The notes under the pieces were generated by a model. That model saw only the letters and a program-made list of their open reading frames with translations, searched no databases and was not told where the DNA came from. The translations under genes were made by a program, and so were the position numbers. A DNA stretch of 55,994 bases, counting the filler, from Sphacelaria rigidula (lineage: Eukaryota), in NCBI GenBank assembly GCA_964200075.2. It is 6 parts of 6 records of this genome, joined end to end, with 100 filler letters (N's around TTAATTAATTAA, not from the genome) between each part and the next. Parts side by side here need not be neighbours in the genome. Positions count along the whole stretch, not along the records: positions 46,746 to 55,994 come from CAXNAA020008932.1; 5 more parts are not named here. One strand, given 5' to 3'. How positions within the stretch are numbered: position 1 is the first letter of the stretch; every line of letters starts with the position of its first letter. This document shows, piece by piece, positions 3,510 to 55,994 of the stretch.

Positions 3510-3780
3510 GTACCTTGCCCGATAACTGCCCATTAAGGGTCGGACTCTTCCGACTTGTTCGGGAAAAAAGATAAACTTTCTCCCCTCCAAAAATGTACCA
3601 GCAGATTTCTCAACCAGGCCAAAGAATAGAACAATCTAAGCCTGACTACACAATACTCGGAAAAATAAGCGTCGGATATATATATATATATATATTCAAG
3701 CTTCAATTGTTTTTCCCGTTAAAGTCGAAAAAGTCTGAAAAAAAAGTCCCGTCAACCCTTTGACCGCGAGGGCAAGATAC
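3510..3780. mobile_element. Possible small MITE-like element
   Basis: GTACCTTGCCC (3510-3520) and GGGCAAGATAC (3770-3780) are inverted with one mismatch; subterminal AAGGGT/ACCCTT and CGACTT/AAGTCG are also inverted; AT-rich interior with a (TA)n run. Confidence 0.35.
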
Positions 3781-8100: not shown

Positions 8101-8827
8101 CCAAGATAACGCGCACGTAGAAGGGACACGAGAAAAAGAATCCGCCATCGACACCAGCAGCGGAGTCATGATCCACAGCAATCAGCGTCACCAGTATTTT
8201 CAATATATTGACAACACTAAACAAGGCCTCTGCTTTCGTAAGTGAATTAAAATAAACGTAGAGCGCTGACATTCTTTCTGGCGTACCTACAGTCATCATC
8301 CAGAGCATTTCACATCGTTTGACGCTCGGACGCCGTGGCAAAATAACGTGCAATCCAACGATGTAGCCGAGCGCTGCACTCAGACGCACGGCAGTGGCAA
8401 CCTATTCCACATCTTTCGTATTTGGGTGCTTCCGCAGCGGCCGACGTTTCACCTTCGTCCAGCGCGTGATTCTCACTGCACAAGAAAAAAAATGCAAAAT
8501 TAGCCTCATTAACGTGTCTTGTATCTGATCATGTTCCATCACATATGCCAAACATACTGCTCCATCCACCTCTTCGCAACTCGCGAACTACCCCTGGTAA
8601 AGGGTCGCTCTCGATTAACGTCGGTAAATATGTATGACAATACACACCTCATCTCGGTGCTTGAGCAGCTGTCGACCCTTCTCCGCTGACTCCGCTCTCG
8701 CCTTCAGCACCTCTTCCTTGAGCTCATCCGCACGGCCGGCGATAGCCCTTAGCTTACTGGACGCAGCCGAATCCTCCTGTTTTCGCCGTTCGTGAATCTC
8801 CGACAGACTAGCACGCAGCTCCTCCAC
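5164..8827 (-). CDS. 3' part of a multi-exon gene for a coiled-coil protein with a low-complexity Ser/Arg/His-rich C-terminus; exons 8827-8648, ~8091-7992, 6215-6134, 5851-5164; 5' exons outside the segment
   Basis: All four exons have AG/GT borders and compatible phases (0, 1, 2). They splice to VEELRASLSEIHERRKQE...LLKHRDE|MATFREDVKKLRELAAQQKEVRQALSDKDDTIR|SLRQRLELERRERGQWAQARTELLSQF|CDEENKLRSTLQ...RQLV*, a charged heptad-like helix. The exon-2 acceptor could be at 8094 instead. Confidence 0.75.
7540..7629 (+). repeat. Interspersed repeat family R1, short copy
   Basis: TCCCTACAAAGCC...AGCACGCCGG.TT..CGCCGGACCAGGC is shared with 19120-19490 and with the reverse complement of 36980-37296. 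Confidence 0.75.
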
Positions 8828-9249
8828 CTTGGGGGTCGCAAAAATCCATGGATGTATAACAATCGGATGAATAGAACAGGTTACAACAGCTCGACTGAGT
8901 CTATCGGACGTGATCGATTGATACAACAGATTAGTTGGTTGATTTGATTTATAGTCGCACTTGAACGTACTTGCTACGAATACAGTCGTGGTCAGATGGA
9001 AGAGAGACGTATGAGAACCTATGCATGGCCAAATTAAAGCAAAAAAAAAGAAGTCAAACCAAAGCACGGATTCTGGTCCAAACTATGGCCGGCAGTATTG
9101 CGACGCGCCAGATCAACCAAGGCTGCCCCCCAAAAGGTTCCCATTTCTTGAAACTACAGTTTTTTTTTTTTTTTTTTTTATTTTGTTATTCTTTTGTTTT
9201 TTTTTCTTTTTTTTTTTCTTATACTTCCCTTAGCCAATAACCCGGAGTC

Positions 9250-9349
9250 NNNNNNNNNNNNNNNNNNNNNNNNNNNNNNNNNNNNNNNNNNNNTTAATTA
9301 ATTAANNNNNNNNNNNNNNNNNNNNNNNNNNNNNNNNNNNNNNNNNNNN
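9250..9349. other. Artificial 100-bp contig linker (N run, TTAATTAATTAA, N run)
   Basis: Identical linker at 9250, 18599, 27948, 37297 and 46646, a constant period of 9349 bp. Confidence 0.97.
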
Positions 9350-9414
9350 GAACCCCCCAACTCAACCATCAGAAGGTTACGAGGTTACCAACTAAGCCAC
9401 CGGGGCGACCGGCT
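9350..9414 (-). mobile_element. tRNA-derived SINE head, cut by the segment end
   Basis: Minus strand reads GCCGGTCGCCCCGGTGGCTTAGTTGGTAACCTCG...GGGTTC (A box and start of B box); same head as the copies ending at 11960 and 29798 and starting at 49060. Confidence 0.8.
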
Positions 9415-11305
9415 TACATGGTGCGCATAAAGTTTCCATACTAAAATCAATATATTACGAGCAGAGGCACTAGATGCCCTAAATCTGGATATCGAGTCTC
9501 AGTTGTTGAGAGTTGTGCTATGAAAAAAAAATGTTCGTATGGAGAACCGCCAGTGCATAAAAAAATGAAATGAAACAGCTTTATACATTTTTTTCGTCTT
9601 TTATGATTTTTTTTTTGTGTTTTTAGTGGACTTTCGAGGAGAGATGAACATTTCTCTTAGTCCTCATCTCGTTTAAGCCCAATTTTTAGAGCTGTGATTT
9701 GAAACTTAGCGTGGAGAACCACGAAGGTGGGCTGAATTAAAAAAAGTGGGCCTTCCTTTTTTTCTTTTTTCATAGAGGTTACGGCGTTCTCGTGAAGAAA
9801 TGGTCTTTACGATACTAGAACACTCTTAACCAGTGAAAAAAACAAAAAAACACCTGACCCACTGAGTCTTTTAATTATGCCCTAGCGAGGGCTCACACAA
9901 AATATCTATCCACGAAAAACAAACGTGGGCCGGTGGGTGGCCTGCGAAATACTGTTCCGAATTTTCACTGACCCGGTTCGAAAAGGCGAATGCGCCAGCC
10001 ATTATTTAGAGTTCGAGCGTAAAATTTGCTATGGACAATGCATAGGGCATAATTTGTTTTTTTACAGAAGCACCTGAAGTTTTTTTTTCGTGAGATAAGG
10101 CTACTTCTCATGTATCGAAAAACCTCCATCAGAAAACGCGCTTCCTGATAGAATTTTTTTCTGATAACAAAAAGCGTTTGAACCTCGTTTGAACACGTTT
10201 GAACACACATTACAGCCCACGACAGCACCTGCGATGGCTTGGCTGCCATCACTACTAATGCTGTCGCCGGTGCTCGCGGGCACTGAGCGTGTTGCATCAT
10301 TTTCCTTCGCTCGCCAGTAGCGTGGTGGCCCTTTACCCCACGAGAACAGCAGAGGGCAGGGTCGATGACGACTGCTGTACAGACAGGACAGTCTATGCTG
10401 TATGTCGCCCGTACAAAATTGTAGCTCAGTTCAGGTCTGTGCACGCAGTGTGTCGTCAACAACAGCCGTCGCAATGCTTTACAGACTGCCCCCGCACCCA
10501 AGCCTTATAGAGACAGGACCGGACTGACAGTACACACAAGACAATTAGATAGGTAGTGCTACTACTGCAGTACACCCGACGCATACAACAGTGGTGTCTA
10601 TACTGTACTGTTGTCTGTGCTGGCCGTACAACCGAGTACTACAGTGCAGCGAACTTGCAGCTCGCTTGAGATCTGTGCATGCAGCTTGTTGCGAACAGAC
10701 GTCGCTTTGCAGTACAGGTTACCTACGCACCCAAGCCTTGTAGATACAGGACCGTACTGACAGTACACGTAAGACTATGAACAGTACTACTGTTGTAGTA
10801 TTACAGCCGATGCATGCAATACAGCACTGTTGTGTGTACCGTTGTGTGTGGTGTCCTTTCAGTCAAGTACTACCGTGTAGTGAAAAAGCACAACCGTCAC
10901 TTCTACAGTCAGTTGGTACAGCAAGGCGGTGTTCTTTTTGATGGTCTTGCGTCACGCAGCCCACCATGAATTGCTCAGGCCATGTATCACAGTAGTACAG
11001 ATAGTCAGTACGGACCGTATACCACGACAGGGCAGCAGAGTGCTGCGTCTCTCTCGCGCCCCCCAGAATTTGAAATTATGCCTGCACACCTGATAAAAAA
11101 CGATGAATTCTGCGTTTTCAATGTTGATAGCGCGTCGATCACGTAAGAAGGGCTACTTTAAAAAATGATGTTGGAAAACTTGTTGTTGAAAAAGGGCTTT
11201 TCTGACAACGTGTTTTTTTGTACATAAGAAGTAGCCTAAGGGCAATAATCAGTTTTTAGGTATCAGTAAAATGCCCTTAACTCACGAAAAGAAAAACTTC
11301 AGGTG

Positions 11306-11960
11306 TGTGTGCGTTGTCATCCCATCTATTCTGGACGCACGTCTACACCTTTCGGTATATAACAATGTTTTCGTGAGATTGAGAGTAGAGCGCTAATTGA
11401 GAGTGGCTTTGATCATTCGCTCTAACTTCGTAAACTTTTCATCCCGTTTGTGCTTTTTTTCGCCTCCATCGTTGGCGTGTGCTTACAGCTAGCTACACGT
11501 CGATATCCTACTCAGGAATATTAAGGGCCTCAGTGGCAAGCTACTACAGAAAGCATATCGAGCCTCGTGGAGGGGCATCTCGGGACTGAAACGATTCATC
11601 AACTAATTGACCGCTTTTCACTCTCAATCGTATCCTCTACGCTCAGTCTCACCTAAACATCGTTATATGTGGGCGCACCAGCCGGGGTCACACAGGAGGA
11701 AGGTCAACACAGGACTTTTTTCTTTTTTGTTTTTAGTACTCCACCTTCCTTCTGCGGTGCTTGCTTTCCTTTTTTATCGCGAGAGGAGTTCAGCAATCCC
11801 TTTCCCTCGTCGACCGTTGAGTCGAATGTGTACCCACGACATAGTCGCTTTTCACTGTTGGGCACTGTGTGAAAAAAAATCCCAGATCGCTCCGAGATTT
11901 GAATCCACGACCCAACCGTCAGGTTTCGAGGTTACCAACTGAGCCACCGGGGCGACCGGC
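11306..11960 (-). mobile_element. tRNA-derived SINE (full length, CA-rich tail), interrupted by a MITE
   Basis: A box TGGCTCAGTTGG and B-box-like GGATTCAAATCTC on the minus strand; body matches 28382-28643 and 49060-49582; sits in the host TIR with GTG on both sides. Confidence 0.85.
11361..11664. mobile_element. MITE, 304 bp, ~30-bp TIRs, flanked by ATAT
   Basis: AACAATGTTTTCGTGAGATTGAGAGTAGAG ... CTCTACGCTCAGTCTCACCTAAACATCGTT; the empty site CGGTATATGTGGG is present in the SINE copy at 28441; second copy at 48732-49031. Confidence 0.88.
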
Positions 11961-13467
11961 GTGCTTCTGTAAAAAAACAAATTATGCCCCGTGCATTATC
12001 CATACCAAATTATACGCTCCAGCTCTAAATATTGGCCGGCGCATTCGCCTGCAAACTTCAAATCCGTCGCTAGGCTGGCCCAGCTCGTACTCGTACAGTG
12101 CAGAAGGATTTTTGCTTGGTCGTTGTGTTGGAATCAGCATTTCATGACCACGACAAGGTACAAGTCAGCGGAGTGGACCTGTCTCTGCAGGCTTGAAACG
12201 GTCGCTCTCTCACCACATGATTCCAGGTGCCAAAAAACTGGACAGTGGTCTCTTGGTGCGCCTTAGCCGCTGATGACAGCCACCCCTTGGAGCTTTGACG
12301 GTGGCGACCCTGCCGAGCGTACCGAGTGGATACCTCGCACGAGCGATATCTACGTCTGCGTCGGTGTTGCGTGGTCGTGATGTTGATCCCGACGAGCAGC
12401 CCGAGAAGGTATCCAAAGCAACCTCTGTTCCGAATCGAGGGTATTTCCCGCTGTGTACGTGAACAGCGTGCACTGATCGTGTGGAGCGCAGACTGGTGAT
12501 GGTGGTCATCACCACGAGTAGCTGCCGGCGTGATGGTACATACTGTCTACGAGTGTGTTTCATGTCTCACGCTAAAGCTTCCACGGACAGTGTTGCCAGC
12601 GTTTTAATTGCCCAGTTGAGCCGCATCCAGCTACCACGCGCCCATAAGGCGCGGTGCGGTATGATACACGACAACACGGACAGCTATAGTGGGTAAGCGC
12701 GCTGGAGAGAAATGGGCATGCTTTGAGTTGCACGGGACAGGCCAAAACGTCATGCAAACGTGTAAATGGCACCGATCTTCTCTCTTGTCAATCCCGACAG
12801 CAGGATGACAAGTAGATTCAGAACAACTAATTCAAGGGGGATGCGGCGTATGTACGATCCTGTGCTGTCCGTTACAATATAACAGCTTTTTACAGTAGAC
12901 AGTAGTTGCACAAAGAGCGGGTACTGACGTGCTGGTCGATCGAGGCAATGTTTTACAAGCTATTCGGTTACAAAGATCTATCACATATACAAGTGATCAT
13001 GACACAACAGGCATGGCGCGCGGGTCAGTGGACAAGCTTTGTATTCCGAAACGCGTCGTCCTGTTACTGACTGGTGTATTTGTATTTGGATGTTTTTGTC
13101 TCCATCTATAGAAGTGATACTACCGACGCTGGTAGCTGAAGGTTCGAAATAGCCACGTCGTGGCATCCTGAGTGCTATTGCATAGCTTCAACTCACTATG
13201 ATTGCTAAAAATACTCACAGTCACAGAGGTATCGACTGCACGGAGACTCGATACAGGTCCATGCATGTCCTCGTTCGTTGACGGAAAGTGCGGCGGGATT
13301 TCCACGATCACAGATCACAGAATTAAGAAATCCACTCACTCGAGGTAAGAAGTCATACTCCAGCGCACCACCGGGCGAGCTGTCGAATCCTTCTGTTCAG
13401 CGAATCTCCATTCACAAGAAAAGGAGAGAGAACTAGATAGAGTAGGAGGATCAATCGAAGACAACAG

Positions 13468-13667
13468 AGATGGACGTGCTCATAACGATATGGGCTGGCT
13501 GCAGCGTGGGGCTCTGGGCGCAGCTTATTGACCAAGAAACTAAGGGTGTCAGCTTGGAGGGCATTCTGGCGAAAATTGGCTCGACAGAGGCTTTTCAGCA
13601 GCAGCCGTTGCTGCTGCAGGCCAATGTCGCGATGGTGTCGCTCCTCTCCGCCCTTGTCGCGATCAAG
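13468..13667 (+). CDS. Possible isolated coding exon, unknown protein
   Basis: CAG acceptor at 13465-13467 and AAG|GTATAC donor bracket an open, protein-like frame (MDVLITIWAGCSVGLWAQLIDQETK...LSALVAIK); no partner exons identified. Confidence 0.25.
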
Positions 13668-14690
13668 GTATACCCAGTAGATTTGAATGCCTTTGTTTTT
13701 CTATATGAATCTGAGATATGCTAGTGCTGCTGCATCTCGAGAGTAAGATATCGAGAGCAATGGCGAGGGTAATCGGGCCTTTATGACGGTACTCCTCGCT
13801 GCAGTACACTCAGGACGATACAGATGGTACAATCAAGTAGTACCGGGACAGTGCAAAACAGACTACTCGTACTCTACAGTACAGTACAACAGTGTCACCT
13901 GCAGAACTTTTTTTGTTGTTGTTCTTGTTACATGACGCCATTCATCACCGAGTAGATGCATCCCGTTGATGCAACTCAAGCCCTTGTGAGCTTGTGCTTG
14001 CTTCTCGTATTGCAGTGAACTAACCTATCGAAGATACCGTGCAAGCCACAGGCCCACAATGCATGCTTCCCACAGAGTTTCGCTCCTTTGTAGATTCCAC
14101 ACCCTGGACAATACTCGTAAACGGCATATATTGGGACAGCAATAGAATCTGCTGCAGTAGATGCCAATATTGCCGTCCGTAATGGCGATCGATCGGCAAG
14201 TTTATCTTTCTATTGTCGTCGGCAATGTCTGTTGATAGACCAGTTTCCCACACTCTTGTCCGGGCAGCAGTCTGTTGTGGCCCTAAACCGGAATCTATTG
14301 CGGTCGACCAAATGTGTTAATCGATACCTGCAGTTTCCCGAATCTATCAACTCTTTCGAGACTGAAGCTCACCAACACCACGTTCACGACGTGTTCGTAA
14401 AATAATAATAAACAAGTCTGGGAGCGACCTGTCCAATCAGGGCGAGGCGAAAATTATCGACATCAGAACGACCAGTGGAGGGGGGGACTGTTGCCGGGAG
14501 TGATGTCACTGCAAAGTTGGTGTACCCTGTCCCTGGCCCACAGAAAAAGCCTTCGAAGCAAAAGAAAGCCTACACTCTCGGGGCTCGGATTCCCGAATTT
14601 TTCATCATTTACTTGCATTTTACAGTGTTATTCCTTTTCAATAATATGGAGGCGGTATTTTTGGGAAATAGGCGCCCCAACACCGCACAC

Positions 14691-21700: not shown

Positions 21701-24700
21701 TTGGGTGTGTATGTATGTGGCAGGTTTTGTTGGAAAACTTGGCCAATTTGCTTTTCAAGTGCGCCGCCCACTGCTACGTCACAGCATGTAGTTCGGCTCC
21801 CAAGCAGCTCTGCGTTGTTGCATGTACTGAGATTTGTCCCCCGCCGCCCCCCCCCCCGCCCCACGCATGCGAGGTCAATCGTCAAATGCCTACCGCATGC
21901 AAGATTATGAGTACACCCCTTCTTCCACACACCCCGCGCGCGACACCCATGCACGACCCCACCCCGGACCCTTGCACTTTTTTTTTTCTTCTCGTTTGCG
22001 TCATCGGGCAGGCGACGGTGCAGCAAATCGCAGACCGCTTCCAGGAAAATTATGGGGAAAGCTTGGTGAGTATTTTTTTGTCGCCGTGAGAGTGGACAAG
22101 TTGACACGCGTGAGTAAAGGACGGGAGACCATATATGGAAACAATATCACCGCTGGATCGTCCCCAGGCTATTTGGTGAGGCGGGGGACTCGGTGGATAT
22201 GTAGAGGCATATTGTACTGAATTCCAGACGATGACTAGAAATATTGTCCAGCATGTGTTGCCTAGCAAGAGAACATTCCGGCCGCCTTGCGTACAGTGAT
22301 TGATCGTTCTGAGGTCTTTAGCTACGATCGGCGTTGGGCCAAAGAAGCGCTTCGTATTCGAGGGAAAGTGGCTATTTGTGGTTGAGGCGACATTTATCTC
22401 ATGAAATCCATCTGAACCGCGAAAACGTGCGTCATGGTAGTAGTGTACCGTAGTGTGAGTACTACTAGTGCTTGATTGTCATGTGCAAATGGTCCCTTCT
22501 CGAGTATGCTGCTAGAGGGAACAAAACAGACCACTTTGCATGGTTTTGGACAATCTTCCTACTACGGGGGAACATTGTTAGTACAGTAGGAGTTAAAAAT
22601 GCGCGAGGAATTTTTTTCAAGAAAAAATGTGCAAATAATAATCTTACTTATACGCGTCTACACGGTATTTTCTTCCGCAGTTTTCAGACAACACCCACGG
22701 GAGGACATGAGTAATGATATGCATTGTGCACACCGTAGGAAAGCTGGCAACTGTGGTGGTTTCCTCCCCAGGCGTATTGTACAACATGCAGAAGAGGAGG
22801 TCAAGATGATCATAACAGCACTGTTTTTCGTTCGGGGGGAGGAACGCCATCCCCACACCCTTTGAACAAACATGCAAACGATCAAACGACATATCGATGA
22901 CAACCTTGGAATATAACCGAGGAAGCTCTTGAAACCGTCTTTCTAATTTTGAAGATGCGCACGAGAAATTACCAGCTGAAGTGGGGGGCTGCAGGTCGAA
23001 GCGTACCCCAGAGCGATGCCCCGCAAAAGAGGTCGGAAAACAGCAGCGCCACCTGGCGCTGCACCAAAGGTGGCAAGAGACGAGCTACTCATGTACATCG
23101 AGAAGCAGATGGAAGGACGTGAAAAAATCGTTGCTGGGCGAGAGACAGCCATTGCTGTAATACAGCCCCGTTTCGTTTGCGCTGCATTTCTGTTCCATTC
23201 CGCGTTTTCTGTCCCGCGACGTGTTTTCTGTGTGTGTTCGTTGCATGCACGTGAACCGGTGTCAGCTTTCTCCAATGCGTTTCTACATTATTTCAATGTC
23301 CGTGAGCGTTTCACCCGTTGTATGTGTATGATTTATAGCCAGAGGTACAAAAATCTCTTTTTTTTTTTTCTTATTATCTCTGAAGGTGAGACTTCAACCA
23401 TGCACAATAGTAATATATCTGGTTTGTCCTGCTGTAATCGTTTGACATAACACCATGAGCTCTCAACGGAAAACTACGGCAGTTGGTACCAAAACGCCGC
23501 CCCTTCATACGAAGCACTACTGTACGTGTACTGTCCGGTTCTCTCCGAAAGCATGTGCCAGTTCTAACCGACGTCATGCTGTGATTTTGTGTGCATCTGG
23601 AATATTTTCGTACGCGCAGATTGCAGCGCTGAAGAGCGAGTTGAGCGGACGCCTGCGTCGCGCAACGCTGACCTGGGTTGCGGCTACCGACCCCATGCAC
23701 GCGGGGTAAGCGATTCGATAATGTGATGCTCACTCACCTGAGCCAGCAGCATAACGGCGCACCCTCCGATTCCCCCACCCTACCGACGAACAACTAGACG
23801 GGCGTGCATATATTGCGTGCACACGGCGGCGTCTCTCGTGCCATACCCGAAGTCCTCGAGGACACGTCAGATGAGAAAACACACATATCATCAATGAAAG
23901 AAGAGAACGCGGCATATATACAAGACGCGAGCCGTTGAATCATACTGGTTGTCAAGACGTGCTCAACACTGTATCACAGGAAGCAACTGAAGCAATCACA
24001 ACACACGAGCAGGCACAACACAGGCATGATACCCATGCCTGCGACATCATGACACCCACACACACTGAAAGAAGAGAGACGTTTTCGAACCACAACATCT
24101 CTTTTGCAGAGGCAAACTAGCCGAAGCTTTGGAAGATCTGCCGGAAGACGAACCCTGCGCGGAGGACGAGGTTATCGTGGACGAGGAGGATAAAGAGGCC
24201 GAACCAGAGCCGGAACTGCCCCCCCCCCCGCCCCCGAGCTACAGCAACCACGTCGCCGCACAGGGTGGCGGCCCTCCCCCGCAGTACAACGTCACTCACG
24301 TTACACAGGTAGGGAAACAGGATCGGGACTAGACGGTAGGGATGCGACGGAGGGATGACGTCCAAATGTTGGTGCTATGCAGAATCAGTTTTGAAGCCGT
24401 GTGAAAGCGCTATTTCGGAAGCGTGAGATGTCGAGTCTTGAAGACATGTGAGATACCGGCGGGGAGTTGCGGATGAGGGCTGGGCTGAAGTGGTCATGCT
24501 GAGGTGTTGTGTGAGGGGGACGGAGGTGGCGGAGGGGCGGGCTGCTTTGCTATTATCATTGCTGTGTGCTCGTGCGGGCGTTTTTGTGCAGTTGATACAA
24601 GTGCGTTCAGCACCCTTACCAAGAAACAGCCAAGGCAAGTGACGGCCCTCTCCCCAACGTGCAGGCCACAGGCACGGTATAGAGAAAATTCTAAGGGAGC

Positions 24701-29687: not shown

Positions 29688-30435
29688 TAACTGTTGGGCA
29701 TCGTGTGCGGGATATCCCAGTTCGTTCCGAGAATTGAACCCACGACCCAACCATCACAAGGAGTCGAGGTCACCAACTGAGCCACCGGGGCGACCGGCTG
29801 ACTTTACGGCCACATGTTTCGGGTTTTTGAAGCCAAGGATTCGGGAGTCTTCTTTCATGGGTTGTGTCAGACAGAGATCACGATCTGTTTGACGGATAAA
29901 TAAGTTGGAAGCCTTGTGTTGTACTGTCCGGGAGTACAGTAGTGGGAGGGTTCGAATCCCACCCAAGATGTACGGAGTTTTTCTTGGAGTGGTTCTAAGG
30001 CAGGGGTGCACAATTTGTTTCCAAGGCTCTGCACTGTTGTAGGCTAGCCTCTCGATGATACACACACACACATATGGGGCTTCAGTGTCCAGCCTCAGAA
30101 AACCTTCGGGCTGCACTGTGCATGCACCCCTGCCAGAAGAATCACTCCTTGGAGATATTTAACTCTTGTCTTCGAAATTGTGAGGAAGAGAGTAACACGG
30201 GAACACTGACGAAAATGGATGCTGTGTGGTGCGCGCGCGGGAGTGCGGATCCAATCCACGGCACCATCATGTCGAAGGCAGGGCGGGCAGGTATCGCTAC
30301 CATAGGAAAGACGGGCGGGTTGATTGTCTCGAGAATACGGATTCGTCCTGAGGAAGACAAGGGTTTATTAAGCATGGCGAAGAAGAAAAAACAAACTTGA
30401 GTAACGCCGCGATAGCCCCCGCCCCCCTCTCCCCC

Positions 30436-30942
30436 AAACGTGCTCCGTCTCAAAAGGGGTGCGTGGTCAATGGTCGAACGACCAAGTCAAGCAACGAATG
30501 AGTACGCCCCCCCCCTTTGGACGCTGCGAAAAATGTGAAACTGCGATTTCGGGTGGGGGATCTGGACCCTTCAGAAAGAAGAGAGATATATACCAGTCGT
30601 CGGAAGGAGGAGGAAGTAGATGGGCAGAACTGCCCCTGTGGCGAAGGAATATAGAGAGCAGAAGTCATGTAGTGGCAGAATGTGAACTATACAAGGAGGA
30701 ACGGGACGTGCTAAAGAGGGAAATGCGGGACGTAAATGAAGATATCGTGGAATCGTTTGATGCATTCGACAGTAGGGAGAAAACGATGCCTGTACTAGGA
30801 GATAGATGACGACCAGAGACGGTGAAACGGGGTGGAGGTAAGATATGTAAAAGGTTTTCGTGTAATGTATGGAAGAAACGTAATGAGCGCCGGAATGTTG
30901 GAGGTGGCTCTATCAGGAGTAGGAACGGTGCTCCGTCTCGAA
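30436..30942 (+). mobile_element. Degenerate non-LTR retrotransposon (LINE) ORF2 C-terminal fragments, the extreme 3' end placed before the upstream part
   Basis: Frameshifted peptide KLRFRVGDLD...NCPCG/IESRSHVVAECELYKEER...LGDR*...NVWKKRN resembles the post-RT CCHC knuckle and W..RN motif of LINE ORF2. GTGCTCCGTCTC occurs at 30440 and 30928; 30463-30515 matches the reverse complement of 55941-55994. Confidence 0.75.
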
Positions 30943-37396: not shown

Positions 37397-37426
37397 TGTC
37401 TGTGGCTCGTCTTGTAAGACGCCGGC

Positions 37427-37740
37427 GACGATATCGCGGGTGGTCGTGTTAAGCTCGAATCGGCTGGGGTGCGCCGCCCTTCCCCGTCCCGTGTTGTGTT
37501 GGGGGATGATTTTCAAAGAGGACGGCGACGATGTCGCGGGTGGTGGTGTTAAGCCCGAATCGGCTGGGGTGCGCCGCCCTTTCCCGCCCAGTGTTGTGTC
37601 GGGGGATGATTTTCAAAGGGGGCTGCGACGATGTCGCGGGTGGTGGTGTTAAGCTCGAATCGGCTGGGGTGCGCCGCCCTTCCCCGTCCCGTGTTGTGTC
37701 GGGGGATTGTCTTAAAGATGGCGGCGACAAAGTCGCGAGT
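37427..37740. repeat. GC-rich tandem repeat, 100-bp unit, three copies plus a partial
   Basis: GACGAT.TCGCGGGTGGT.GTGTTAAGC.CGAATCGGCTGGGGTGCGCCGCCCTT starts at 37427, 37527 and 37627; a remnant lies near 37930. Confidence 0.92.
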
Positions 37741-41624: not shown

Positions 41625-42035
41625 GGTTATTGGTAAATACCAGTACCCGGTACCGGTATTTGGAACATCGCACACCGTACCGATACGGGTCCAATCGTAT
41701 ATTTACAAATATCATGTCTATGACACCCACGATACCACGGTATTTTGAGGTTTCCATACCTTCCATACTCGCCCAACCGGGTATTTTCTAAAATCGTACC
41801 AACGATACCTACGATATCACCGTATTTCTACATTTCATCACCCACTGTACCCGCTCAATCGGGTATTTTCAAATGCCGTACCTATGATACCTATGATACT
41901 ACGGTATTGCGATATTTCGAAACCTACCGTACCCGCTCAATCGGATATTTTGAGAACTAATGCCTACGATACCCATGCGAACCACGGTCATGGGATACCG
42001 CGGGAAATACCGAGGATGTACACCGTGAATACCAG
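41625..42035 (+). repeat. Repeat family R2 with internal ~60-bp tandem units
   Basis: Units such as CCGTACCCGCTCAATCGG.TATTTT...TAC.ATACC.ACGATACCACGGTATT; homologous to 42888-43030 and to the reverse complement of 47327-47730. Confidence 0.8.
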
Positions 42036-47326: not shown

Positions 47327-47730
47327 TAGGTAAGGCATCGTACCGAACGTACCCCCGGTAGTTACCGAGGTATCTTACACCGTGGTATGCGTGGGTATCG
47401 TGAGTATGAGTTTTGGAAATACCTGATTGAGCGGGTACGGTAGGTGGTGAAATCTCAAAATACCGTGGTACCGTAGGGATCGTAGGTATAAGTTTTGAAA
47501 TACCTGATTGCGCGGGTACGGTAGGTACTGGTACCTCGAAATACCGTGGTATCGTAGGGATCGTAGTAATGACATTTGAAAATACCTTCTTGATCCGGGT
47601 ACGGTAGGTATCGGTACCTCGAAATACCGTGGTATCGTAGGTATGGCATTTGAAAATGCTCGAATGGACCGGTTTCAGTAGGGAATGACATGTCCCAAAT
47701 ACCAGTACCGGGTAACTGCCTTACCCTCTA
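47327..47730 (-). mobile_element. Repeat family R2, apparently complete MITE-like copy with ~60-bp internal tandem units
   Basis: Short TIR GGTAAGGCA / TGCCTTACC with TA near both ends; four to five internal units of AATACCGTGGTATCGTAGG / CGGGTACGGTAGGT. Confidence 0.7.
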
Positions 47731-48731
47731 TACCGACATCAAAAATGTCATACGGCAGTGCGGATAAGCGTTTCAGGGCGTGACTTTGGCTACTTTTCAA
47801 GTATCGAAGAATAAAAGTTGTTGAAGAGTGCATTTTTGGCCCTCCTTCGTCGTTATTCACCCCAAAAGAGGGCGAGGCTGATGTTCACATCTTGGAATGG
47901 CTTACTCTACTCTCTGAGGCCGTTCCAGAGCACCTTTACGTTTTCCGTATAGGTCACGGTTTCGTTTTTGGCAAAACTTGCATTTTCAATGAAAAACGGT
48001 TAAGTTACCAAAAAAATCAGTTTACCCCCTGTTTTTGTGGTTTGTGTTTTTTTCTTGCTCTGGTCTCAGTCACATTTTAGAAAACAACGTAGGAGTATAC
48101 CATATATGAAGAATACAAAAAGGGGACATTTTGCTGACCAGGCTCGCAACAAAATAGGAACCCGAAATACGACCATGGAAGTTTGGAGTACCGAAGTCTG
48201 AAGCCTGTCCGCCTGTCTGGTGACGAGTCACGCCAGATACATGGAGCACTTTCGGGCAGCTGGCTGCAGGCGCATGAAAACAAATCGCAACTTTGAGCGC
48301 GTTTTATGCGCGTTTCAAGCATAATGATAAGCTTTGTCATAAAAAGTGAAGGATCGAAGCGGAGCGGGATTTGCGGTGTGTGTATCGGTACGACTCGTTA
48401 CATAGTGCAACGGATCAAGCTGACGGATTACAGTGCAGCAGGAATCGGATTCAGCGTGGTCGGGAAAATGAGTGGTACCATACAAGACAACAAATAAGAA
48501 AGGCAGGTGCACGGGGACGTGGTGAAACAACAGAACAGTACAGCCTTTATTGAGCAATATCGTCAAGCAACGCAGCAGGCGATTTCGTTTCCCGTCCCTC
48601 GCAGAGGAAAATTTAATAAAATCATTCCAGATTCACAAGAGGAGCAAAGGTCTATTTAACCCTGACAGGCGGCGAGAGGTGGATCATCTGTTGGATGGGC
48701 ATCAATCTCACTCGAAAAAAAGTACACATAA

Positions 48732-49031
48732 AACAATGTTTTCGTGAGATTGAGACTAGTGCGCGGATTGAGAGTGACTTGGATCATTCGCTTCAACTCA
48801 GCCAATATTTCATTCCGTGTGTGATTTTTTTGTATATTGTCACTGCCGTGTGCTTACAGCTACACGTCGGTATCCTACTCGGGGATATCAAGGGCCTCAG
48901 TGGCAAGCTACTACAGAAAGAATATCGGGCCTCGCGGAGGTGCATTTCGGAACTGAAACGATTCATTCACTCATTGACCGTTTTTCACTCTCAATCATAT
49001 CCTCTACTTTCAATTTCACGAAAACATCGGT
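48732..49031. mobile_element. MITE, 300 bp, same family as 11361-11664, flanked by ATAA
   Basis: ATAA|AACAATGTTTTCGTGAGATTGAG...TTCAATTTCACGAAAACATCGGT|ATAA; interior colinear with the first copy. Confidence 0.88.
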
Positions 49032-49059
49032 ATAATCGAGATGGCCTACCCTGGTTCAA

Positions 49060-49582
49060 GCCGGTCGCCCCGGTGGCTCAGTTGGTAACCTCGAAACCTT
49101 CTGAAGGTTGGGTCGTGGGTTCAAATCTCGGAGCGATCTGGAATTTCCTCTCACACCATGCCCAACAGTGGAGAATGACTATGTCGCGGGTACACAAAAT
49201 TCAACTCAACGGTCGACGAGGGACAGGGACTGTTCAACCATTCTCCCGATACAAAAACAAATTGGGTCGTGAGTTCAAATCTCGGAGCGATCTGGAATTT
49301 CTTCTCACATCATACCCAACAGTGGGGAACGACTATGTCGCAGATACACAAAATTCGACTCAACGGTCGACGAGGGAAAGGGACTGTTCAACCATTCTCG
49401 CGGTACAAAATAAAAGGCAAGCACCGCAGAAGGAAGGTCGAGCGCTAAAAACAAACAAAAAAGAAAAAAACCCTGTGTCGACCTTCCTCCTGTGTGACCT
49501 CGGTGGATGTGCCCACATATACCGAAAGGTGTAGACCGGTGTCCAGAATAGATGGGATGGCAAAATACATAATACACAACAC
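49060..49582 (+). mobile_element. tRNA-derived SINE, full length, with an internal ~154-bp tandem duplication
   Basis: A box TGGCTCAGTTGG and B box GGTTCAAATCTC; the B-box segment is repeated from 49262; CA-rich tail; degenerate target duplication CTACCCTGGTTCAA / CTACCCTCGTGGTCCAA. Confidence 0.88.
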
Positions 49583-49956
49583 TACCCTCGTGGTCCAAGG
49601 GCAAAAACCCCTTTTGGAACTCACAGTGGAAAAATGATCATTTGCAGTTGACGATTTTTGAACAAGATGTGGTTGATGGTTCACAGCTCAGACGTAACAA
49701 AACTCGCCCAATGCTTATTTTTCGGACCCGTGCAACTGACGAGTTGAGCAGAACAAGGTTTCTCATTTGCACGGCAAAAAGTACATCCACCTATATAGGT
49801 GAATCCTTAGTTCCACCGTCACTTTTCATCATGACCGATCCCGAGTTGATTTTTTCAATTCGGGAGTCTGTGAATCACACTTATGAGAACCCAACACACC
49901 TTATAGTTCTGTCCAAGAACCTATATTTGGTTCTACTCATGGGAACGTTCTAGCAC

Positions 49957-50385
49957 TGAGGAAGGTTTCTCAGACGTCCGCTAGATCTCGGGAGGATGGT
50001 CCGTTTGTCTCGGAATATCGGGACAATATCACACCGAATATGCCCAAGAGTCACAGAACGTTGTACACACCAAACCCGAGGTGATCTACACGTTGAACTA
50101 AACTCTAGGCCAATGTCTGTCGGTACATGGTCCTTTGATCCATGTCCTGTTGTCTGCGATGAGCTGCATGGAGAGATCGCAGATCATCCCCACCTCAGCT
50201 CACAACAACTCCTTCTCTTCCCCTCCACTCTGTCTGTCAAGCTCACTCGAGCCCTGCCCGGTCCACTCAACGCTACCGACGTAGCTTAATTGGAAAGAGA
50301 GATCACTCTGCGTCTCGCTCGCGTTTCGCAGAGAGAGGGAGGGTTCAAATCCCTTCGTCGGTCTTCTTACCGTATACGACTCTCA
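49957..50385 (+). mobile_element. 5' LTR of a Ty3/gypsy retrotransposon
   Basis: Ends in ...CTCTCA with one spacer base before the PBS; left end taken as TGAG at 49957 (alternative TGAGA at 49884); no 3' LTR to confirm. Confidence 0.6.
50275..50363 (+). ncRNA. tRNA-like cloverleaf with Pol III A and B boxes inside the LTR; not a canonical tRNA
   Basis: Acceptor stem ACCGACG/CGTCGGT (7/7); A box TAGCTTAATTGG; T arm GAGGG-TTCAAAT-CCCTT; anticodon arm replaced by a CTCTGCG/CGCAGAG stem with a 14-nt loop. Confidence 0.75.
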
Positions 50386-50386
50386 T

Positions 50387-50404
50387 TGGCGTCGACGGTA
50401 GGAC
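50387..50404 (+). promoter_or_regulatory. Primer-binding site, complementary to a tRNA 3' end (probably tRNA-Ser)
   Basis: TGGCGTCGACGGTAGGAC(TCGAA) is complementary to TTCGAGTCCTACCGTCGACGCCA, i.e. T loop, stems and CCA; GTCGACG-CCA resembles eukaryotic tRNA-Ser ends as I recall them. Confidence 0.8.
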
Positions 50405-50419
50405 TCGAAAACGGTCACA

Positions 50420-53400
50420 TTGAATCAATCAGATGCCAAACGCTTGCCTCGATTGTCTGGTAGTGTAGAAATCGGCAATGCGAGCGATGTAGATGTACAG
50501 TCTGTACTAAATCAATATCGCACGGTTGCAGGATTTCGCGCCCAATCTGTCAGACCAAATGACCCAGAATATGCTGACAGACTCGCTTTTGAGTACTTCA
50601 GTATTATTTTCGATGGTCCAGCTGCCACAATGTATCAACAGCTAATGTCAGGATGCATTAATTGGCAAATATCTGTCATAAACACCGACACCAATGAAAA
50701 GGCCGGTTCGTTTCCTCCCCCTTCCAACTGGAAGGAACTGTCTAATGCTGTACTAGATCTTTTGATGCCTAGTAACAGTGTCGAAGAGTGCGCTCTTCGT
50801 CTCGCTTCGTTCAAGATGGAAAAAAAACGAGTCTGTCCAAAAATACGCTCTTCGTTTTTGTTCTGTCTTGACACGTTTCGAGAGATCTGTCGGTAGAGCA
50901 ACCCCTGGCCGTACGCCCTGGGTTGCCATGTCTGTCGTTTTGTGGCAAAATGGCCTCGCACCAGCCATTCAATGCCTTCACCTGTCAGAAAAGCCGGTCA
51001 CCTCTTTCCGTGAGGCTGTCGATCGTGGTAGACGCCACGAGGGTGCTAGTCTCGTTGGTGGTGCCACGACCAGTGCATTATCATTCACACACATACCCAA
51101 CCGCTTCGCAATTGCTCAAGAACAGTTCGCTCATGATGCTGCTTCAAGGGGTTACAATACCCACCATAAGAAGAAGAACCAACGCCAACATTCGTACAAA
51201 GGAAAAGCGAAAGCCAACCACAACGTCGAACCTACCCCTTCACACGAAGGAGAACGGAAAGGACGCCCGCATTGCACGTGGGACCCGTGTGAGAAGAAAC
51301 CTGGCCATACGTACGAGAACTGTTATCAGAGGCAACGGTTTGAAATCCAACAACAGCAGCTTCAACGGAAGAAGAACAAGAGAGCGAAAACTTCAGCTAA
51401 GCGTCCTGTGTCTAATAGTACAGATAGTAAAGGTAGCAAAGATGAATGATGTTGCCCAGCTGTTGTAGCGTCTGATACAGTTGGGTTGTCTCCTGTCTCA
51501 CACGGGAAAGACGTGAAGAGGAAAAAATCCCTGTCCACGTCAGCAGCAGTTGGCACTTATTCTTCAGTTGTGCCCCGAGTTCGTGTTCGGAATCAGCAAT
51601 ATGTCGTACCTTATATTCGTGACTGTACGCAGGGTACAAAGAGAAGTCAAAAGGGTACATGATTTGAGTGTCCCTTCGTTAGAAAACACCGTTGATGTTT
51701 CCCCAACTACAGTTTGTAAATCGCTGAAGCGAGTAACTTTTCCCGGTAGATTACCTGAGTCTACCAGTAGGCAGAGTCGTGAGTGTTTTCAAGAGGAAAA
51801 TGTTTGCACGAAGGAAAAAAAAAGATGATATAGCTCTTCGCTGATCCACAAACCCAAGTCTCTCTCTCTCTCTTTTTCGTCACGACGTGTCCGTGTTGCT
51901 GGATATGTCGATGACCATCACGTTGATGACGTGACTATCGACACTGCTACTGACGTGTCTATTGTTTCACGAGGATGGCTGAGAGCCCACCCAACAATGC
52001 GAAACATGCCACTCAAACCTGTTCCAACTGCTGATTTTTCATTGAGCGCACCGAACGGTTCACCAATGAATGTTCTTGGTTTCATCGATTTCCCCCTGAC
52101 TCTTGGTGACGTTACTCGTACAGTTACCGCACTCGTTGTCCCATCACTTGGACCTGATTATATACTTTTAGGCAACCAAGTCATGTCTGATTTCGGAGCA
52201 ATATTAAACTGGGAAAATCAAACACTTTCTTTCACGTCAACGGGTCTGTCAATCCCAGCAGTTCACCGCGAAAATACTGCTACACAACGTCACACTAATG
52301 CCTGTTTTACGGCACTAAATGTATCTTCGCAATCTGTCGCTACTATCAATAGCAATGCTGAGGCAAATTAAGTTGGTTTGTGTGAAATGTAAATTTAAAA
52401 CAAATGAATGAAGCTCTTGCAGTAGGTTTAACAAATTGTCTTCCACCTGAAGACTGTACAGTGATTATCGAGCCGCGAATAATAACTGAGGAGGAATTTT
52501 CAAACGACCCGCAACTGATACCCTTCCAAATATTGTTATAGCCCGCACTCTCTCTACATGGAGAGCATCGGATGGGTCTGCAGCTGTGCAAATAGCCATC
52601 CCATCTAAAGATGGTGTAGCCCTGCACGCAGGACTATGTCTCGGACACCTGTTCACAGTTACGGTCACAACTCCAACACAAATTAATGTCAGTGCAGTCG
52701 CGAAAACTTCACAGACAGCACAAGAAGTCAAACGTGCAAGATCTGAACTTGAAGGTCCTTTATCCAAGGCGTTTTCAACGACAACGCTTACCACCGACCA
52801 ACAGGCATCGGTTCTAGATTTGTGTGCTAATTTTTGACCTATTTTTTCGCTGTCTATGTCAGAATTAGGTCGCTGTACTATTGCAGAAGCAACTTTTCCT
52901 GTCCCTCCTGGTACTCGTCCTGTAGACAGACCTCCTTATCGCCCCAACCCACGTGCTTCCGCAGTAATTGACAAGTGTGTCAAGGAAATGCTGGATTGGG
53001 ACATTATTGAAAAAAGACCAAGTCCGTGGGGTAGCCCATGTACCATTGTAGTCAAACGCAATGGTAGTCCACGGTTCTTTGTTGACTATCCTCACACTCG
53101 TAACCATCATATTGTCCGCAAGAGTTGGCCCATGCCAAATCTTGAATCCTGCCTTGACGCAGTAGTTGAAGCTCTATACATTACTGTATGCGATGTCCTC
53201 AGCGCATTCTGGCAAATTCCAGTGGCCGAAGAACATGTGGACCGGACTGCGTTCGTCACACCAAACGGGAAGTACTGTTTTAAGCGTATGCCTTTTGGAG
53301 TATGCAATGCACCTTGGCTTTTCCAACATATGATGTGAATGGCTCTAGGTCATCTTGGCCCATAATCTGGTGTTCTGTCATACATGGATGATTTAATTTG

Positions 53401-55940
53401 TATCAGTTACACATTCGAAAATCATCTCCAATCGTTGGAGCAAATGTTTTCAGCACTCTAAGCAGTAGGCTTAACTCTAAAACCATCGAAAATTCAATTC
53501 GGACAGAAAGAAATCGAATACCTCGGACATACTATTTCTGCGAAAGGAATTTCTGTCAGCAACAACCGCATAGAAGCCATCCAAAAGCTGCCCACGCCAA
53601 CATGCATCAAAGATCTCAGATCAGTTTTAGGCATGTTAAATTTTGTCCAGCGTTTTGTCAAAGATTATGCTGACATCACAGCACCACTTGTCGATCTAAC
53701 TCGCAAAGAGTTTGCCCTAGAAGGAAATTTTAAGAAAGCTTGGGGTACAGCACAAGACACAGCCTTCACGAAAATTGAACAAGTGCTAGCTTCTGCCACT
53801 ATCCTACACTTTCCTGGTTTTTCGAGAGAATTTGTAGTTCATACCGATTCTTCAGAAATTGGTGTAGGCGCTTTTCTCGCTCAGCCATGCAACGATAGTG
53901 TCGACGGTAAAGAAATTGATATGGTGACATATTATAGCAAACGCTTTTTCCAAAAGCCAATGCCATTATAGTCCAACTATGAAAGAATGCCTCGCTATTG
54001 TCTGGTCTTTTGTACACTGAAGGCCATATCTCTGGGGTCAACATTTCACCTGTCATGCAGACCATCAAGCTCTCACATACTTATATAACATGCAAGATAC
54101 ATCTAACATGTTGACACGTTGGGCTATAGCACTTCAATATTTCGATTTCACTGTCAAGCATGTCCCAGTAAAATCTAATATTGTACCCGACTCACTGTCT
54201 CGTCTTTTCACAGAAGTGAACGGCGAAGAAATACCTTCTGAACCTAGGTTAGCAGCAATCTGTCGAAATGCACCAGAAAATAAACCATTTCATCCGCCTG
54301 CACCTAGAGAATACGAAGTATCCGCCTATAACTTAGACGATATAGTACCCGTGGAAAGCGACCGTGAATTATTCTCGAGTGTAGTATCTGTTTTTTCCTG
54401 CTGTTGATTCAATGGAGTTACTAGAACAACAGAAAAATGAATTCAATCAATATTTTAAATATCTTCTCGAGCCTAACTCAGCTCCTGTCCCAGCTCAACA
54501 ATCGAAATCGAGTATGAGCAAAACATTTTGTCCACGGCGATTTATGATATCGTTCTTACCGCCCTGGTCACTTACGCCGCCGCGGTGATTTCCGTGATCA
54601 CCTAGTAGTACCCGATTCACTACGGAAACTGATTATTAACGCGTGTCATGACTCACCATCTTCTGGTGGTCATTTAGCTTTCAAAGCTACATTCGACAAA
54701 GTGCGTGATCGATATTGGTGGCCTACAACCCATACGGATGTACAACAACATGTCAATAGTTGTGTATCATGTCAACACCGTGAAACTTCTCACCGTCCAC
54801 CCACCTTACCTGTGGGATATCGTCATGTCGAACGCACATTTCAATGTGTTGCAGTAGACCTTATCGAATACAAATCTCCATCAGAAGGCAATCGACACAA
54901 ACTGTCAGTGATCGATCATTTCACGAGATTTGTTATATTAATTGCCATTAAAAACAAAGAGGCTACTACAGTTGTTCGAAAACTTGTTGACCACGTTATC
55001 TCGGTATTTGGACCACCCGAAACTCTTCATTCTGATCATGGAACAGAGTTCGAAAACCATTCAGTCAAAGACTTACAAACTATCTTTGGATACAAAAAAA
55101 CACGGACAGCCGCATATCGTCCACAAGGCAATTCTGTCATGGAATGAGTACACAGCACTGTCCATAATATGCTCGCCATTTAGCAATTTAGCCTGCGCTA
55201 ACTGGGCTGAATTATTAGCTTTTGTCCAACTGGCACACAACACAGCATATTCATCAACACTCGAGGAAACACCTCATTATTTAATGTTCGGAAGAGCAGC
55301 TGTACTCCCAGTGGATCTAATCCTTGGCCTTCCAGCCACATCTGTACCGCAAACACGACTCGATTACTCTCGTCAAACTGTCAACAATTTACAACTAGCA
55401 TACGAGCTAGCCCGGCGCAATCTCAAAGAACGCGCAGATAAACAAGTGGTTGCAAATGAGAAACTGTCGTTTCCCAGTTTCAAACAAGGCGATAATGTTT
55501 TGATACATCGCCCATATCACGAGTCTGACGGTCCCAATCCTCAGCTTTACAGCCCATGGCATGGTCCGTATGTAGTCCGAACGCAACTGTCACCAGTTAC
55601 CTACCGAGTCAGTGAACCAAAGGATCCGGCGGAAATAACTTTTCACCTTGGTCGCATGAAAAAATACAACGATCCTATATCGTCACCTGTCCCCGACCTT
55701 GAAGCGCTCGACGGCATATTCTTAGGAACAACTCTTGAAGTCCCAGACCTTGATGGTTCAGTGCACAAGGTCATGTAAGGACCATATACGGTAGAGTATA
55801 TTGATGGTCATAAGCGGGGGGTTGGAGCCGGTTCACAAGAGAATTTCCAATATCATATCAAAATCAAGGATTGGCCTCCTCAACGTGGAGTATGGCGACA
55901 TATCGTACCATTCAACAATGTCACGAGTCATCCTACGATA
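50420..55940 (+). pseudogene. Decayed Ty3/gypsy gag-pol: Gag (50420-51449), protease, RT, RNase H, integrase, GPY/F, chromodomain-like tail
   Basis: Gag knuckle CTWDPCEKKPGHTYENC with a frameshift in the A-run near 50820; VTIDTATDVSIV; SPWGSP, AFWQIPV, RMPFGVCNAP, YMDD at 53381; TDSSEIGVGA, NIVPDSLSR; H..H..CVSC, VAVDL, SDHGTEF; WHGPY. Order PR-RT-RH-IN; many stops and frameshifts. Confidence 0.95.
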
Positions 55941-55994
55941 GGGGGGGGGGCGTACTCATTTGTTGCTTGCCTTAGTCATTTGACCATTGACCAC
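55941..55994 (-). mobile_element. 3' end of the LINE family seen at 30436-30942, inserted antisense into the gypsy element
   Basis: Reverse complement GTGGTCAATGGTCAAATGACTAAGGCAAGCAACAAATGAGTACG(C)10 versus GTGGTCAATGGTCGAACGACCAAGTCAAGCAACGAATGAGTACG(C)9 at 30463-30515. Confidence 0.85.

Follow-up and report, generated by a model that had tools for sequence, protein, structure and literature searches.

Long terminal repeat (LTR) retrotransposons in which a small-RNA promoter is built into the LTR (Cassandra, Helenus, and Ajax) are known only as miniature, non-coding elements. As described in the sections of PMC10886601 on which we draw, the Helenus elements of the TRIMp3 group carry in their LTRs a tRNA-like stretch in which boxes A and B are conserved and a credible anticodon is lacking; they were defined among miniature terminal-repeat retrotransposons (TRIMs) of <1000 bp, their families are non-coding and measure 311 to 1263 bp with LTRs of <=323 bp, and their hosts are given as fungi, animals, and Selaginella. 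The same sections give a length of 565 to 860 bp for Cassandra, likewise non-coding. Cassandra, a TRIM of vascular plants with a 5S module in each LTR, is in the corresponding part of PMC7215508 the lineage of the TRIMp3 group for which there is evidence of transcription, and the 5S domain lies 8 to 173 nt from the primer-binding site (PBS). Here, we analyzed a stretch of 55,994 nucleotides, filler included, from the Sphacelaria rigidula assembly GCA_964200075.2 (the window), in which a tRNA-derived module of 89 nt lies near the 3' end of an LTR placed at the head of a gag-pol element. The module is a decayed tRNA copy: acceptor stem, T arm, and both the A and the B box are retained, and duplication of 11 nt has made the anticodon arm larger. 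It forms a constant component of a high-copy family of LTRs of 517 bp, one member of which serves, in this window, as the 5' LTR of an integrated, broken Ty3/gypsy-type gag-pol element. We hold these three statements together with high confidence. The features that carry them are as follows.

49869 to 50385, plus strand: 5' LTR of 517 bp (TG...CA), member of a high-copy repeat family, delimited by loose contig ends and depth
50275 to 50363, plus strand: tRNA-derived module, discriminator base included, from ARAGORN and RF00005
50282 to 50293, plus strand: A-box-like segment in the D arm, from the sequence and the Rfam alignment
50306 to 50333, plus strand: hairpin replacing the anticodon arm, 50306-50312 pairing with 50327-50333 (7 bp, 14-nt loop)
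50342 to 50352, plus strand: B-box-like segment in the T arm, from the sequence and the Rfam alignment
50387 to 50404, plus strand: PBS-like 18-mer, one base past the LTR end, implying a tRNA 3' end with CCA

The sole gene call made by ARAGORN in the whole window is a "tRNA-???" at 50275-50363 (+) with a 4-base "anticodon", and the Rfam tRNA model RF00005 matches the same positions with 33.2 bits (gathering cut-off, 29; E = 0.0037 for the window), its alignment spanning model positions 1 to 71 of 71. RF00005 is the only Rfam family over its gathering score within the 55,994 bases, and it is the acceptor, D, and T arms that lift the module over this curated threshold. All seven pairs of the acceptor stem (50275-50281 with 50356-50362) are present both in our reading of the sequence and in the Rfam alignment, which also gives a D arm with one mismatch (G50284/A50298) and a T arm made of 50339-50343, its loop, and 50351-50355. 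The segment 50282-50293 is what we take to be an A box, judged against the consensus. In the anticodon-arm region, 34 nt correspond to only 17 model positions. Within this enlarged arm, 11 nt are duplicated in tandem (50310-50320 and 50321-50331, 8 of 11 positions alike), and the removal of one unit would bring the arm back to the normal size of an anticodon arm, which argues for the decayed copy of a whole tRNA rather than an invented fold. A genuine tRNA gene, with its 5-bp anticodon stem, 7-nt loop, and readable anticodon, is excluded by the 34-nt arm and by the "tRNA-???" call with four anticodon bases. No 5S rRNA was found among the four Rfam matches at E <= 10 in 50200-50450.

Downstream of the module, the CA at 50384-50385 is 22 nt away and the PBS-like 18-mer 24 nt away; the 18-mer is unique in the window at <=3 mismatches, and its complement ends in CCA with a C at tRNA position 61. 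ARAGORN, Rfam, and the sequence thus agree with the original prediction, made from the sequence alone, on a cloverleaf with a perfect acceptor stem, an A box, a T arm with B box, and a hairpin with a 14-nt loop. Its statements that the module lacks a body and tail of a short interspersed nuclear element (SINE) and differs from the tRNA implied by the PBS were borne out as well: the PBS or unlike flanks come after the module, and only 8 of 15 positions are identical to the implied tRNA.

Evidence on other copies of the LTR came from the contigs of four public runs, aligned to 49700-50700 at 80% likeness (376 contigs from X1, 384 from X2, 411 from X3, and 31 from X6). X1 and X2 come from one sample and X3 is labelled "algae metagenome"; these three are the DNA-type runs, and X6 is RNA only by the guess of the tool. 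We inspected 32 out of 1219 pieces of contig, 40 out of 157 rows of differences, and nine joint types. By the tool's own caveat summed contig depth is not copy number, the zero depth of X6 past 50414 marks an uncovered part and is no result, and contigs cannot reveal where RNAs start or end.

The LTR opens with TGTGAATC at 49869 and ends with CA here and with TA in most other copies. Loose contig ends with unlike flanks accumulate on both of its sides, ahead of 49868/49869 (7 + 14 contigs in X1, 18 in X2, and 12 in X3) and behind 50383 (9, 9, and 8 contigs, respectively). In X1, the summed depth is 38.6 to 59.5 in the two left-flank bins (49700-49767) versus 1235 to 4745 in the LTR bins (49870-50379), then 573 in the bin across the LTR end and 242 to 447 in the internal bins up to 50685, so that LTR bins exceed internal bins 2.8- to 19-fold. 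The earlier placement of an LTR at 49957-50385 was therefore wrong as to the start, which the loose ends set at 49869, 88 bp away. Depth does not fall within the module: its four bins (50244-50379) range from 1687 to 4745 in X1, from 4600 to 14253 in X2, and from 3520 to 9744 in X3, at least as much as the rest of the LTR, and the bin 50346-50379, holding the 3' part of the B box, is the deepest bin of the LTR proper (49870-50379) in each DNA-type run. Among the pieces listed, two diverged copies contain the whole module together with upstream LTR (record 6 from X1, 50146-50367, and record 32 from X6, 50244-50369), and four others (records 5, 23, 30, and 31) run from upstream LTR into the module. 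Most contigs are <95% alike, and flanks diverge between copies only after 50383, that is, downstream of the module. The high depth of the module and the diverged contigs that link it with upstream LTR confirm that it belongs to the LTR family and is no one-off insertion; the absence of the module from other LTR copies, the case that the prediction itself had named as fatal, was looked for in the public contigs and is contradicted. Within the window, LTR, module, and pol each occur once only by repeat search, blastn, and tblastn. Pattern scans with the module in metagenome, viral, and genome contig collections gave 0 matches, and a protein search with the open reading frame (ORF) across the module (50163-50423) for mis-called ORFs of other copies found none.

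Behind the LTR, the interior is a broken Ty3/gypsy-type element of ~5.5 kb with the following features.

50402 to 51468, plus strand: gag-position ORF fragments in three overlapping frames, assigned by position only
51829 to 52371, plus strand: protease-position ORF, assigned by position only, with no Pfam match
52838 to 53338, plus strand: reverse transcriptase (RT) fragment (Pfam RVT_1, 9.7e-10)
53462 to 54407, plus strand: RNase H split over two frames (Pfam RT_RNaseH_2, 5.7e-14, and RT_RNaseH, 9.5e-09)
54548 to 55778, plus strand: integrase in two overlapping frames, with zinc finger, core, and C-terminal SH3-like part (Pfam)
55779 to 55943, plus strand: in-frame tail past a stop codon, from translation, with a chromodomain motif by eye only
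55941 to 55950, plus strand: run of ten G, possible polypurine tract, followed by a short repeat to the window end

The integrase matches Integrase_H2C2 (1.8e-20), rve (1e-12), and Integrase_p58_C (5.3e-06) in Pfam, and its best solved relative is Ty3 Gag-Pol (7q5b, 3.3e-16), as the best solved relative of the RT is the Ty3 RT (4ol8, 6.8e-22). The order of the pol domains, RT, RNase H, and then integrase, is that of Ty3/gypsy elements. The ESM Atlas returned only generic retrotransposon clusters with the integrase, a viral contig collection contained no relatives of it, and the gag-position ORFs matched no Pfam family at E <= 0.01 or <= 1. Of the Ty3/gypsy gag-pol with a chromodomain-like tail that had been predicted, the Ty3-type pol is thus upheld by Pfam and by the Ty3 relatives; the chromodomain is not, the tail at 55779-55943 having no match to Pfam Chromo at E <= 1. 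Among the PDB rows listed for this tail are only designed SAKe proteins and KEAP1 and no chromodomain protein. Against single Kelch blades, KEAP1 reaches E = 0.0068 (20.1 bits), and the 3.6e-12 of SAKe is summed over six weak blades. Both a chromodomain and a Kelch reading of the tail are tentative.

Like Helenus, the locus has in its LTR a tRNA-derived module with A and B boxes and without a credible anticodon, after the LTR a PBS not complementary to the module, and a large excess of LTRs over internal parts. The tRNA-derived sequence with both boxes lies inside the LTR across LTR copies, as in the TRIMp3 group, and of the layout of that group, in which two LTRs flanked by target-site duplications of 4 to 5 bp surround a PBS and a polypurine tract, the window, which ends before a 3' LTR, contains one LTR, the PBS-like 18-mer, and the possible polypurine tract. 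In contrast to the miniature Helenus elements, <~1.3 kb and non-coding, the LTR of this copy heads ~5.5 kb of gag-pol with RT, RNase H, and integrase. Strict membership in Helenus is ruled out, this copy being coding and its LTR of 517 bp exceeding 323 bp. The hosts also differ: fungi, animals, and Selaginella for Helenus, and here a sequence of which one public run is labelled "algae metagenome". With Cassandra, the LTR shares a module of small-RNA-gene origin near its 3' end, at 24 nt from the PBS here and at 8 to 173 nt there. However, the Cassandra module is 5S derived, with boxes A and C and a terminator, whereas this one is tRNA derived, with boxes A and B and no T4 run from there to the LTR end, and the sole Rfam family at gathering score is tRNA.

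More distant systems share single traits. The tRNA-derived SINEs (SINE2) also occur in many copies and contain a tRNA-related sequence in which both boxes, A and B, are present and the anticodon region has degenerated. However, the module begins 406 nt into a 517-bp unit, at its 3' and not its 5' end, with unlike flanks 20 to 22 nt after it, and has neither a body nor an A-rich tail or one derived from a long interspersed nuclear element, and a PBS follows it in a subset of copies. A SINE is ruled out by the position of the module at the 3' end of the unit and by the missing tail. With Ty3/gypsy elements (Metaviridae), the locus has in common the order of RT, RNase H, and integrase, Ty3 as nearest solved relative, and a TG...CA LTR followed by a PBS. 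Ty3 reportedly targets tRNA genes yet carries none, and in the literature searched we found no description of a coding Ty3/gypsy or other coding LTR element with a complete tRNA-like cloverleaf in its LTR. Retrozymes, non-autonomous elements with hammerhead ribozymes in their LTRs, resemble it in having a small structured-RNA module, repeated in both LTRs, that could define RNA ends; there the module is a self-cleaving ribozyme, whereas a tRNA mimic would need the host RNase P or RNase Z. For retrozymes, the comparison draws on Kojima's Discussion (PMC10886601).

We propose, tentatively and with somewhat less than even confidence, a model in which the module would be an inherited, tRNA-derived type-2 promoter of RNA polymerase III (Pol III), or a TFIIIC site, serving only short derivatives of the family. 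A tRNA-derived sequence, either a retro-copy of a tRNA or a SINE head, would have entered an ancestral LTR once and would since have been copied with every LTR. As in Cassandra and Helenus, it would act as an internal type-2 promoter and as the entry point of TFIIIC and TFIIIB, and transcripts would start at the module, defining a short R-U5 of ~110 nt beside the PBS. Such Pol III transcripts would be complete genomic RNA only for short non-coding derivatives, which could account for part of the excess of LTRs over gag-pol sequence. The 5.5-kb coding element would need a promoter of RNA polymerase II (Pol II) in the ~400-bp upstream part of the LTR, and in dead copies the B box may still bind TFIIIC. 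Pol III terminates at T runs. The sense strand of the interior has 35 runs of at least four T, the first at 50587, and Pol III could therefore not transcribe the gag-pol interior whole.

Several observations are consistent with this promoter model. The module was called a tRNA by two independent programs, and its position at 24 nt from the PBS, mirroring that in Cassandra, was counted in favor of the model. The presence of the module throughout the family, the 2.8- to 19-fold excess in depth of LTR over internal bins in X1, and the 11 X3 contigs that leave the LTR end for a sequence other than the interior speak for it too. The length variants listed for the module all fall in the stretch separating the A box from the B box: 4 nt are deleted at 50300 in two to six contigs per DNA-type run, 1 and 2 nt are deleted at 50297 and 50302 in a single contig each of X3 and X6, and one loose end of X6 has more than two copies of the 11-nt unit. 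This confinement is what flexible box spacing tolerates, since a promoter of this type can accept changes of length between its boxes. Moreover, the promoter-relevant parts are kept or improved by the majority letters of the other copies, which are C at 50290 in the D loop (T in the window) and T and A at 50338-50339, with T at 50320 in some copies; at 50339, a change from G to A converts the closing pair of the T stem from G-U to A-U.

A number of points weigh against a Pol III promoter. None of the runs carrying the sequence is on record as RNA, and the contigs of X6 cover the LTR from 49869 with a depth that rises at ~50108, ~170 nt upstream of the module, which is not what initiation at the module would look like. 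Between module and LTR end the sequence has no T4 run and hence lacks a built-in terminator such as that of Cassandra. By our reading, changes at 49923, 49925, and 49926 give most other copies a TTTT near 49922-49925, at which Pol III, in the 3' LTR, would stop ahead of the module. The cloverleaf (-24.4 kcal/mol) is 5 kcal/mol worse than the minimum-energy fold (-29.4 kcal/mol). Variant 5' acceptor strands occur in loose ends (three contigs in X2 and six in X3), their 3' partners lying outside the visible sequence. Among the rows listed, the window differs from the majority at 5 of the 89 positions of the module and at 24 of the 406 positions of the upstream LTR, ~6% in each. Finally, in the argument set out by Kojima in the portion of PMC10886601 used here, autonomous partners are expected to use Pol II without sharing LTRs of this type. 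The window LTR as a whole has no T4 run, and we rejected this as a Pol III signature: 83% of shuffled sequences have at least one such run and ~17% have none, and the absence is not significant.

At a divergence of ~6%, by our estimate, unbroken stems would be found by chance about one time in four. The intact stems beside a decayed pol, pointed out in the original prediction, are no sign of selection, the module being, among the rows listed, as diverged as the upstream LTR. The stems are also rich in CpG steps, which can decay into seemingly compensatory pairs. The commonest difference between the window and the majority is a C in the window and a T in the majority, at 26 to 27 listed places per DNA-type run and often in a CpG, and the LTR family is probably old and decayed by deamination.

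These observations bear on a plainer explanation, in which a copy of a tRNA or SINE head came to lie in an ancestral LTR and was duplicated along with it as a neutral relic, with no role as promoter, insulator, or RNA. We regard this as a serious possibility, with a likelihood well below even. It would account for the free variation in length of the module's middle among copies, for a module no better kept than the rest of its LTR, and for a thermodynamically ordinary fold (z-score of the whole module versus shuffles, -1.08, no better than shuffles). Two of the nine listed joint types, 50205>50318 and 50203>50340, delete the A-box half, each in single contigs of low depth as expected of deletions at single loci, and the available part of PMC10886601 speaks of "not a few" Repbase LTRs with tRNA-like pieces. 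On the other hand, a neutral relic would not be expected to keep both boxes and to have one T-stem pair improved in the majority letters, nor to sit where Cassandra has its working promoter, and the family reached its high copy number with the module retained.

A distinct question, of ownership and not of function, is whether the LTR type belongs to the gag-pol lineage at all. At this locus, LTR end, 1-nt spacer, PBS-like 18-mer, and gag follow one another in the order and at the canonical distance of a native element. The 5' end of the LTR is a breakpoint in the surrounding repeat (49774-49866). Other copies of that repeat have a common continuation past 49866 (13 to 21 contigs per DNA-type run, agreement 0.71 to 0.75), which shows that the LTR element inserted into the repeat. 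This continuation has 0 matches in the window at <=3 mismatches and is absent from the remaining 6.1 kb. Thus, LTR and gag-pol most likely integrated as one unit. The predicted association of the module-bearing LTR with a gag-pol element holds for this copy, where 5' LTR, PBS, and Ty3-type gag-pol stand together; a second case is not among the contig pieces listed. By our estimate, the odds are about even that a coding family is where this LTR type natively belongs.

It is doubtful, with a probability clearly under that, that the LTR is instead foreign to the gag-pol lineage and belongs mainly to a non-autonomous, Helenus-like family. The element in the window would then have arisen as a template-switch hybrid at a shared PBS, with unlike 5' and 3' LTRs, or by later rearrangement. 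Such an origin would explain why the 44 nt past the G10 run are unlike the start of the 5' LTR by eye, blastn having found no other LTR-like stretch in the window. These nucleotides are part of a short repeat at the window end (55942-55994) that recurs at 30463-30515 (-) and 21873-21919 (-) with 90.6% and 80.9% identity, purine runs being found at 30515 (-) and 21919 (-). The contigs speak in the same sense: those related to the interior (~86% alike; for example, records 7, 8, 15, 16, and 24) begin at 50406, four X1 contigs have ahead of it a common 30-mer unlike the LTR (agreement 0.91), and in 11 X3 contigs the LTR end is followed by TTGG... and, after that, by sequence that does not align to the interior of the element in the window. 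No joint between LTR and interior is among the nine joint types listed, and no second LTR-to-interior junction is among the 32 of 1219 pieces listed. Nevertheless, with so few of the pieces listed, bridging copies may exist, and both the native order from LTR end to gag and the integration as one unit into the repeat at 49774-49866 run counter to a hybrid. What follows the G10 run is either a different 3' LTR beginning there or an insertion without relation to the element; in keeping with the latter, tblastn shows no pol upstream of the short repeat at 30463-30515 (-) or 21873-21919 (-). In other families, moreover, autonomous and non-autonomous partners commonly share LTRs. As for the short repeat itself, its core of ~50 nt is preceded by a G-rich or purine run in all three window copies and might mark where another LTR family begins, or else represent a small unit of mobile or satellite type.

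Improbable, to our mind, is an action of the module at the RNA level, as a tRNA mimic within the R-U5 leader of a Pol II transcript. It would signal cleavage by RNase P and RNase Z, so that transcripts are trimmed or punctuated, or it would be a decoy or handle that aids packaging or the placing of the primer tRNA on the adjacent PBS. Acceptor stem and T arm, the part of a tRNA recognized by RNase P, RNase Z, and the CCA enzyme, are intact here, and the lower half is free to vary. The PBS is 24 nt away; between the 3' strand of the module and the PBS-implied tRNA, 13 of 15 positions show either identity or a transition; and the X6 contigs, if they are RNA, span the module and ~170 nt upstream of it like a Pol II leader. 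However, that X6 is RNA is the tool's guess, and its contigs cannot show RNA ends. Cleavage of the 5' leader would presumably strip the R needed for strand transfer. Pair probabilities of 0.58 to 1.0 in the acceptor stem and 0.41 in the hairpin go with only 0.52 to 0.54 in the T stem and 0.08 to 0.09 in the D stem. Past the first bases, the 3' end of the module is not complementary to the PBS, as is also the case in Helenus according to the relevant passage of PMC10886601. The module RNA itself as primer is rejected on the same ground, its 3' end not being complementary to the PBS.

Lastly, a one-off event, with a real tRNA gene, a pseudogene, or a SINE beside or within a single LTR copy, would fit a window holding one LTR copy and one module only and is to be dismissed almost entirely, given the high depth of the module, the diverged contigs tying it to upstream LTR, flanks that diverge between copies only past 50383, a non-canonical anticodon arm, and a place between LTR body and PBS that is impossible for a target-site tRNA gene, by which place a tRNA gene at the integration target is ruled out too.

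Returning to the promoter model, a bolder extension of it, which we consider unlikely, is that the element represents the autonomous stage that gave rise to Helenus-type elements, a coding Ty3/gypsy family with a working tRNA-type module in both LTRs. Such a family would make a Pol II genomic RNA and, in addition, short RNAs from which miniature derivatives are seeded, these RNAs being produced by Pol III or punctuated by RNase P and RNase Z. In that case the TRIMp3 group could have its origin in the reduction of an element of this kind and not in the insertion of a SINE into an existing TRIM, and the type would extend to a host group beyond fungi, animals, and lycophytes. If the association of LTR and gag-pol is native, it would offer a direct test of the argument against shared LTRs made by Kojima in the part of PMC10886601 cited above, and a candidate progenitor. 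If it is a one-off hybrid, what remains is a new host group for a Helenus-like family, its LTRs unusually long. LTR copies of this kind, present by the hundreds, inflate the number of predicted tRNA genes and spread B boxes, which are potential TFIIIC sites, across a genome.

The neighborhood of the element is repeat rich. The short repeat at 49774-49866 has the highest summed depth on the aligned stretch (4491 to 8389 in X1 and up to 20890 in X2, bins 49768-49903) and contains a small hairpin around a T6 run. Elsewhere in the window, the repeats listed comprise two 154-nt tandem units (49108-49415), units of 81 to 91 nt at two sites (41684-41938 and 47412-47656), units spaced by 100 nt (37397-37716), and a dispersed pair 83 to 88% alike (11357-11785 and 48728-49034). 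A 20-mer at 29941-29960, similar to a B box and T arm and 90% alike to the T arm of the module, is probably the "local SINE head" from which the original prediction had set the module apart; no Rfam match at E <= 1 was obtained in 29700-30200, nor any ARAGORN call. Twelve N runs in 9250-46745 (ten of 44 in regularly spaced pairs, plus one of 9 and one of 10; 459 N) look like masked stretches and not like assembly gaps.

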